NCBI GenBank assembly: GCA_944390515.1
Contig: CALXQG010000001.1
Location: forward strand, 1-54,128
DNA from: an uncultured Clostridia bacterium
GTDB taxonomy: Bacteria; Bacillota; Clostridia; TANB77; CAG-508
Length of the DNA: 54,128 bases
Direction: 5' to 3'
Below are positions 13,735 to 13,789 of the stretch, in pieces; positions within the stretch are counted from its first letter, which is position 1; the number at the start of each line of letters is the position of its first letter. The notes under the pieces were generated by a model. The model saw nothing but the letters and a program-made list of their open reading frames with translations, was not told the DNA's origin and ran no database searches. Made by a program: the position numbers and the translations under genes.

Positions 13735-13789
13735 TTTATAACATATTAATTAAATATATGCAAGAAAAATATTACGACAAAATTCGACA
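13735..13789 (-). promoter_or_regulatory. sigma-A-type promoter with an upstream tandem Spo0A-box-like operator
   Basis: On the minus strand: TGTCGAATTTTGTCGTAA (13789-13772), an 8-nt gap, TTGCAT (13763-13758), a 17-nt spacer, then TATAAA (13740-13735). Confidence 0.5.

Follow-up and report, generated by a model that had tools for sequence, protein, structure and literature searches.

An 18-nt sequence upstream of a four-gene operon for a VirB4-like ATPase, in the genome of an uncultured Clostridia bacterium, is supported by sequence comparison as a tandem Spo0A-type operator whose distance to a sigma-A-type promoter is fixed. It lies in a 54,128-nt contig (CALXQG010000001.1, assembly GCA_944390515.1), analyzed here at its full length and referred to as the window. 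The element is of a well-known cis-regulatory kind, and the novelty lies in its targets and in the comparative proof rather than in the mechanism. It opens the Spo0A regulon of a family of uncultured gut Clostridia with genomes of 0.9–2 Mb to testable, sequence-level study; the organism’s named relatives are metagenome-assembled genomes such as ‘Clostridium sp. CAG:567’. The window covers the replication-origin region of a draft genome of 27.5% GC, whose 75 contigs add up to 1.08 Mb at 70% completeness.

Operator geometry and conservation upstream of the VirB4-like operon

Read on the minus strand from position 13789, the window presents TGTCGAATTTTGTCGTAA, an 8-nt gap (tatttttc), TTGCAT, a 17-nt spacer, and TATAAA, exactly as an earlier note on this DNA had described. 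Within the 18-mer, a perfect 0A box (box 1) is followed head to tail, at a 10-bp period, by a box with a single mismatch (box 2), which ends 9 nt upstream of the −35 hexamer (Table 1). A search of the window recovers the exact 18-mer on the plus strand at 41272–41289 and a copy with two mismatches, identical over its first 15 nt, on the minus strand at 24382–24399. The earlier note had reported both, the latter as a 15-nt recurrence at 24399–24385 and the former with the same 8-nt gap before TTGACA-17-TACAAT, but the exact copy proves to lie within the end of spmB and is not intergenic.

Dinucleotide shuffling bears out the judgment that such repetition is very unlikely to arise by chance: with up to three mismatches allowed, 100 shuffles yield a mean of 0.04 matches to the 18-mer, and none contains three. 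Genome-wide, the 18-mer search returns three copies only, all in the window contig, and the 15-mer core (≤1 mismatch) likewise occurs three times in the whole draft genome, always on that contig. A very AT-rich genome with dispersed repeats, one of which lies in the operon’s leader 60 nt downstream of the 18-mer, might be thought to produce such a sequence as a chance match or as part of a repeat, without regulatory meaning. That reading is already refuted by the shuffles, by the preservation of the site at orthologous positions in dozens of species, by flanks that differ between the exact copies, and by a leader repeat that does not take in the 18-mer; with three copies only, we also rejected the 18-mer as a dispersed repeat in its own right. 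Promoter hexamers taken alone are uninformative in DNA of this composition (46 promoter-like sites against 55 expected from shuffles, not above chance), and the promoter of the VirB4-like operon is regarded as real because it is conserved across species.

The footprint of the operator was drawn from 65 complete orthologous spacers between gyrB and N226, the first gene of the operon, totaling 55 kb and taken from 80 related loci (L006–L085). TGTCGAA occurs 65 times in the forward direction, in 57 of the 65 spacers, and its reverse complement never; scrambled or reversed control words occur one to six times in the same DNA. A box with at most one mismatch stands at the fixed place in 63 of the 65 spacers, and in six of the eight that lack a perfect box, that place is taken by a box with one mismatch or by a variant. 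In an alignment of 48 promoters anchored at the −35 hexamer, 46 have the first base of box 1 exactly 26 nt ahead of that hexamer, which upholds the fixed promoter distance claimed in the earlier note and extends it to dozens of related species; in the remaining two, a perfect box occupies the box-2 position. Box 2 is more variable, keeping G2 in 43 and C4 in 36 of 47 orthologues. The orthologue consensus is TGTCGAA-at.-tGtCgaa-CGAtTTTTc-TTGAcA-17 nt-TA.aAt, and among 58 promoters 41 have TTGACA as the −35 (the rest TTGAAA, TTGCAA, or TTGCAT) and 56 a spacer of 17 nt. More than 40 genera share a single orientation and a spacing that is exact to the nucleotide. Perfect boxes in the window genome are also concentrated in intergenic DNA, which holds 25 of 42 boxes but makes up only ~11.5% of the sequence. 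Both orthologous conservation and intergenic enrichment show that the site in the gyrB-N226 spacer is under selection.

In most promoters of this design (loci L006–L085 and L147–L186), the triplet CGA is also conserved between the last 0A box and the −35, at −9 to −7 counted from the −35 start, often as ACGA with TTTTT behind it. It persists where box 2 is degenerate and is absent from both 18-mer promoters of the window.

Spo0A and the distribution of its boxes

Spo0A is very probably the protein that reads the operator at 13772–13789, judging from the motif, the encoded regulator, and their shared distribution. The genome encodes Spo0A on another contig (C4:15818–16633; Spo0A_C match of 156 bits), and its DNA-binding domain aligns over 117 residues with Spo0A of B. 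subtilis and B. stearothermophilus (PDB 1LQ1 and 1FC3). Against the 1LQ1 protein the match has an E value of 1e-50, and the recognition helix (SRVERAIRHAIEVAW) is identical. G2, C4, and G5 are the bases through which the Spo0A proteins of C. difficile and B. subtilis recognize TGTCGAA (PMC3485338).

Across 61 family genomes, the tandem sequence TGTCGAAnnnTGnCGnA occurs 66 times and its reversed control twice; the genes behind it were identified for 40 of the 66 sites (loci L147–L186). In relatives, tandem boxes precede spo0A itself (L162), abrB (L175), sigH (L177; NF006148, 250 bits), a Spo0E-like phosphatase gene (L161), and spoVS (L171 and L178), and they recur before DUF6514, sortase, 176-aa, and Rpn-family genes as well as N226. 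The description of the element as a Spo0A-box-like operator is therefore sound: box 1 is perfect, box 2 keeps the core bases, and the same motif stands at the family’s canonical Spo0A targets. An operator of the CtsR or WalR direct-repeat type, suggested by the heptad-3-heptad layout, was dropped in view of the exact 0A box and the canonical Spo0A targets that it marks. In one relative (G053; loci L151–L153, L155, and L156), at least five paralogous genes each stand behind a near-identical tandem-box promoter (TGTCGAAaaaTGTCGAAcgatttttgTTGACA...TACAAT), and at least one of their products has a C-terminal Rpn-family nuclease match.

The boxes disappear where the regulator does, a clean natural experiment that links site to regulator. 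Thirteen of 301 family genomes lack a Spo0A_C match, and three genera (g17, g30, and g50) lack it in every member; in one genome of each of these genera, the first three identified as lacking spo0A, spmB and spoIVA are missing as well. In G029, G075, G050, and G067, which belong to the same genera, the order gyrB-N226-V614-U238 is kept with no 0A box, and a TTGAC promoter is recognizable in three of the four. Box presence is thus 63 of 65 against 0 of 4 (p = 2e-5, an overstated value given that relatives are not independent and that the losses number one to three). TTGTCGAA is, moreover, two to five times rarer per Mb in genomes without spo0A. One genome (G221) has boxes and no spo0A match, which looks like an assembly gap. 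The VirB4-like gene V614 itself is missing, among the matches listed, from 7 of the 13 genomes without spo0A and from 44 of the 288 with it (Fisher p = 0.002; the genomes compared include G071, G080, G118, G185, and G266). V614 could have been lost together with spo0A in some lineages, a comparison confounded by assembly gaps and relatedness on which we do not rely.

It is unlikely that another direct-repeat-binding regulator takes the place of Spo0A. The genome does encode a second Spo0A_C protein, with a receiver domain (C50:8238–9032, minus strand; 41 bits), next to a signal peptidase I gene, and a tandem site on contig C4 lies just 3′ of a two-component system, so that this paralogue or an OmpR/WalR-type regulator by the sortase operon might be proposed; response regulators commonly bind direct repeats of 10–11-bp period. 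The recognition helix of the paralogue is, however, unlike that of Spo0A, and the motif is the exact canonical 0A box, marks spo0A, abrB, sigH, spoVS, spo0E-like genes, and spoIIA, and vanishes together with spo0A. Many relatives carry extra, often shortened, Spo0A_C copies.

The exact second copy of the operator forms the final 18 nt of spmB (40759–41289), stop codon included. The end of spmB reads ..TG TCG plus TAA, TGA, or TAG in 24 of 29 relatives, and in 24 of 29 the −35 is placed 8 nt past the stop codon; in three further relatives the gene end differs and the boxes lie further downstream or across it. In the window genome TCG accounts for 1.8% of Ser codons, TTG for 11.7% of Leu codons, and CGA for 1.9% of Arg codons. 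These rare codons, together with their conservation, indicate that the DNA motif is selected here and not the protein alone. The promoter behind this operator leads to an unannotated 40-codon gene, and 25 relatives have an orthologue of ~33–40 residues (M.F.I.LFFS.YF.IRKII.K.LSKKILKK) in the same place, always behind a tandem-box promoter and starting ~60–70 nt past its TTGACA. Alignments indicate that the identity of the two 18-mers is a convergence of independent operators on one consensus and not a duplication, because each site varies in its own way among relatives; the invariant box is box 2 at the post-spmB promoter and box 1 at the VirB4 promoter.

The third site consists of three phased boxes antisense to mnmG and has no promoter hexamers at the standard distance, and a comparable mnmE-mnmG site is found in only 3 of 29 relatives (L123, L130, and L131), one of them a perfect triple. 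With all three copies of the 15-mer on one origin-proximal contig carrying dnaA-dnaN-recF-gyrB, within 30 kb of oriC, Spo0A might bind in a non-transcriptional role, in replication control or origin organization during sporulation; Spo0A is known to bind 0A boxes at replication origins (PMC2731898). We consider this very improbable. At two of the three, promoter and downstream gene stay in the same nucleotide-exact arrangement throughout the family; other tandem sites are scattered over other contigs, and the one promoterless site, between mnmE and mnmG, is poorly conserved. In many of the mnmE-mnmG spacers (L117–L145), an inverted repeat (GTGAAACA...TGTTTC) unrelated to 0A boxes is conserved just 5′ of mnmG.

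Further boxes in the window genome mark other genes (Table 1). The 176-aa gene (45268–45798) diverges from spoIIR and has orthologues with tandem boxes in two other genera (L149 and L165). The single abrB box stands just before the ribosome-binding site and probably downstream of the abrB promoter, and relative L175 has tandem boxes at the same place. A single box also precedes spoIIAA-spoIIAB-sigF. In a convergent intergenic region, C5:24649–24665 (minus strand) carries a perfect tandem TGTCGAAAAATGTCGAA with TTGAAA-18-GATAAT and no open reading frame downstream, and may drive a small or antisense RNA; no tandem site is more frequent in the family than this 17-mer.

Table 1 Features of the operator, its further copies, and the VirB4-like operon. 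Positions are those of the window unless a contig is given
Feature	Position	Strand	Remarks
0A box 1, TGTCGAA (perfect)	13783–13789	−	Starts 26 nt 5′ of first base of −35; about −61 to −55
0A box 2, TGTCGTA (one mismatch; G2, C4, G5 kept)	13773–13779	−	3 nt past box 1; about −51 to −45
T-rich linker (a + tatttttc)	13764–13772	−	Box 2 to −35; most relatives read CGATTTTTC
−35 hexamer TTGCAT	13758–13763	−	Read from sequence; orthologous position mostly TTGACA
−10 hexamer TATAAA	13735–13740	−	17 nt past −35
Dispersed repeat in 5′ leader	13564–13679	−	~75–116 nt, GC-rich, hairpin-dense; lineage-specific insertion
Four-gene operon between gyrB and gyrA	8903–13524	−	Pfam, NCBIfam matches
N226, VirB4 N-terminal piece	12934–13524	−	Matches first ~150 residues of VirB4-like conjugation ATPases
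V614, VirB4-like ATPase	11027–12871	−	Matches VirB4 remainder; NF045971, 278 bits; TraG P-loop
ParA/MinD/CpaE-like ATPase	9690–10712	−	Pfam/NCBIfam matches
U238	8903–9619	−	No family match (Pfam, NCBIfam)
Second tandem 0A operator	41272–41289	+	Boxes 41272–41278 and 41282–41288; last six codons of spmB (..C R I L S stop)
Post-spmB promoter, TTGACA (41298–41303)-17-TACAAT (41321–41326)	41298–41326	+	8 nt (cttttttg) past operator; 11/12 matches
40-codon gene, unannotated	41368–41490	+	Hydrophobic and basic peptide (MKLLILFIIFFSLFILIRKIIIKIISKK...); driven by post-spmB promoter
Third site, TGTCGAA (24393–24399), TGTCGAC (24383–24389), TGTCAAA (24372–24378)	24372–24399	−	Three phased boxes, mnmE-mnmG spacer
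Same-design promoter, TGTCGAA, ACGA, TTGACT (45176–45181), 17 nt, TAAAAT (45199–45204)	45150–45204	+	Before 176-aa gene
Single perfect 0A box	40019–40025	−	27 nt 5′ of abrB start codon (abrB 39746–39991)
Same-design promoter	C4:6881		Before sortase and LPxTG thioester-domain surface protein
Same-design promoter	C14:8550/8560		Before DUF6514 gene

Direction of control

As to the sign of the effect, we lean tentatively to activation, hold repression to be a possible but somewhat weaker candidate, and give any other outcome little weight. The explanation that we prefer as a whole, and offer with reserve, is that phosphorylated Spo0A (Spo0A~P) at the tandem boxes would stimulate the sigma-A-type promoter of the N226-U238 operon. 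Spo0A~P, probably as a dimer, would bind at about −61 to −45 and contact RNA polymerase stereospecifically from just upstream of the −35, a step in which the stimulatory direction is itself inferred. Expression of N226-V614-ParA-U238 would then be coupled to the level of Spo0A~P as it rises at the end of growth.

Activating sites usually lie upstream of the −35. Activation is preferred because of the nucleotide-exact orientation and spacing in so many genera, because the same spacing recurs at unrelated promoters (after spmB and before the sortase/adhesin operon, the 176-aa gene, and the Rpn-like genes), and because many such promoters, that of the VirB4-like operon included, have a weakened −35 (TTGCAT, TTGCAA, TTGCTT, or TTTACA). 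At the operon itself the −35 is weakened in the window genome and its nearest relatives (TTGCAT, TTGCAA).

Several observations weigh against this preference. The core promoter is near consensus in most species in both its −35 and its spacer, and should therefore fire without an activator. Two features of spoIIG and spoIIE, both established as Spo0A-activated sigma-A promoters, are missing from it: 0A boxes that overlap the −35, and a 21–22-nt spacer. Two relatives (L059 and L083) have spo0A and have lost the box in the gyrB-N226 spacer. The operon persists, without boxes, in the relatives that lack spo0A, three of the four of which also have a recognizable promoter; the operon is therefore not confined to a sporulation function, and its retention fits a vegetative function that Spo0A only modulates. 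In the window genome, finally, a terminator-like hairpin in the leader repeat (13574–13586) lies between the promoter and N226 and could weaken their coupling.

The same site and the same reader, Spo0A~P, could also have a negative effect, in that bound Spo0A would deny the alpha C-terminal domain access to the A/T-rich DNA 5′ of the −35, and an otherwise constitutive strong promoter would be turned down as cells commit to sporulation. This has a precedent in the phi29 early promoter A2b, where a consensus box ~26 bp 5′ of the −35, accompanied by an imperfect box nearer the promoter, mediates repression by UP-element occlusion (PMC2731898), although the counting of that distance may differ by several bp. 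Repression would also accommodate the near-consensus −35 and spacer of most orthologues and the lineages that keep operon and, mostly, promoter without boxes once spo0A is gone. The spoIIE promoter of the window genome looks like the classical long-spacer type (~22 nt), unlike that of the VirB4-like operon, which is weak evidence in the same direction; the spoIIE upstream region contains no perfect 0A box, and the genome, at 70% completeness, yielded no spoIIGA (PF03419), so that neither serves as an internal reference for an activated promoter. Occlusion, however, requires neither a nucleotide-fixed spacing nor a single orientation, both of which are seen at unrelated promoters and in over 40 genera, and the −35 is weakened in the window genome and its closest relatives.

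The earlier note had proposed that the module is switched on, or at least controlled, at the onset of stationary phase or sporulation. Control by Spo0A is well supported by the conserved box and its loss together with spo0A; switching on fares less well, given a promoter that is not of the spoIIG/spoIIE type and that resembles phi29 A2b. Its premise that boxes near the −35 imply activation is right insofar as the boxes lie upstream of that hexamer, but they do not overlap it, and the similarly placed phi29 site represses. The rule that boxes near the −35 mean activation should thus not be applied blindly to a promoter that differs from spoIIG and spoIIE and resembles a Spo0A-repressed phage promoter.

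Operon context and comparison with known systems

On the minus strand the window runs dnaA, dnaN, recF, gyrB (14000–15913), the operator, the four genes of the operon, and gyrA (6363–8801). The 80 related loci share the order gyrB-N226-V614-(ParA)-U238-gyrA, with V614 72–89% identical in them, and the V614 module is found in at least 250 of 301 family genomes, including genera without sporulation. The four-gene VirB4-like module is a vertically inherited core feature and not a mobile insertion.

N226 probably starts at a non-canonical ATA (13506–13504), with a strong ribosome-binding site, GGAGGAG (13518–13512), 5 nt before it; its only in-frame ATG (13524) precedes that ribosome-binding site. 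At least 15 relatives likewise lack a canonical in-frame start and have a ribosome-binding site followed by ATA or ATT, and other genera have ATG at the position of the ATA. The dispersed repeat in the leader has further copies on contigs C60, C51, C27, C9, and C19 (two copies on the last). None of the 80 relatives has it in the N226 leader, and it is therefore taken as an insertion; a conserved riboswitch was rejected on the same ground, and an Rfam search of the whole window returned tRNAs only, with nothing in the N226 leader. A T4SS-like (type IV secretion system-like) module at the left of the window (753–4155), with a coupling protein, a pilin-like gene, and others, was checked for the operator and contains no box.

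The regulon of this family appears to add a VirB4-type ATPase operon, a sortase/adhesin operon, and a micropeptide gene to spo0A, abrB, sigH, spoVS, and spoIIA. A bolder proposal, which we regard as rather unlikely, is that Spo0A would directly time a chromosomally fixed T4SS-like machine without relaxase (the split VirB4 and CpaE-like ATPase between gyrB and gyrA, with coupling protein and pilin-like genes nearby), and that the sortase-anchored thioester adhesin and the micropeptide would be timed with it. If this were true, a whole family of small-genome uncultured gut Clostridia would build a cell-to-cell contact or transfer apparatus as a programmed event on entering stationary phase or sporulation.

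Known Spo0A sites offer four points of comparison. The DNA in PDB 1LQ1 is that of the B. subtilis abrB promoter, with tandem TGTCGAA-type boxes head to tail and a 3-bp spacer, a high-affinity site for a Spo0A dimer. The boxes at 13772–13789 share this head-to-tail arrangement and 10-bp period but lie upstream of the −35, whereas those of B. subtilis abrB lie downstream of the transcription start and repress. In B. subtilis spoIIG and spoIIE, the boxes overlap the −35 and the spacer is over-long (21–22 bp). Both are described, in references cited by PMC12090719, as sigma-A promoters with 0A boxes on the upstream side that come under Spo0A~P control at the onset of sporulation. With a 17-nt spacer and boxes that end 9 nt before the −35, the promoter of the VirB4-like operon is not of that class.

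The resemblance to phi29 A2b is closer. There, site 0A-3 places a consensus box ~26 bp upstream of the −35 of a strong sigma-A promoter, with an imperfect promoter-side box, and Spo0A represses by keeping the alpha C-terminal domain off the UP element, while the site also serves a divergent promoter (PMC2731898). Box 1 likewise starts 26 nt before the −35, with the imperfect box 2 between them, subject to the difference in counting noted above; the promoter of the VirB4-like operon is not known to depend on an UP element. In C. difficile, the TGTCGAA core predicts Spo0A targets that include spo0A and sigH, and the same residues and bases matter (PMC3485338). Both spo0A and sigH also carry boxes in the family of the window genome, but unlike the C. 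difficile target list, that family has the VirB4-like ATPase operon, the micropeptide gene after spmB, and the sortase/thioester-adhesin operon as new targets.

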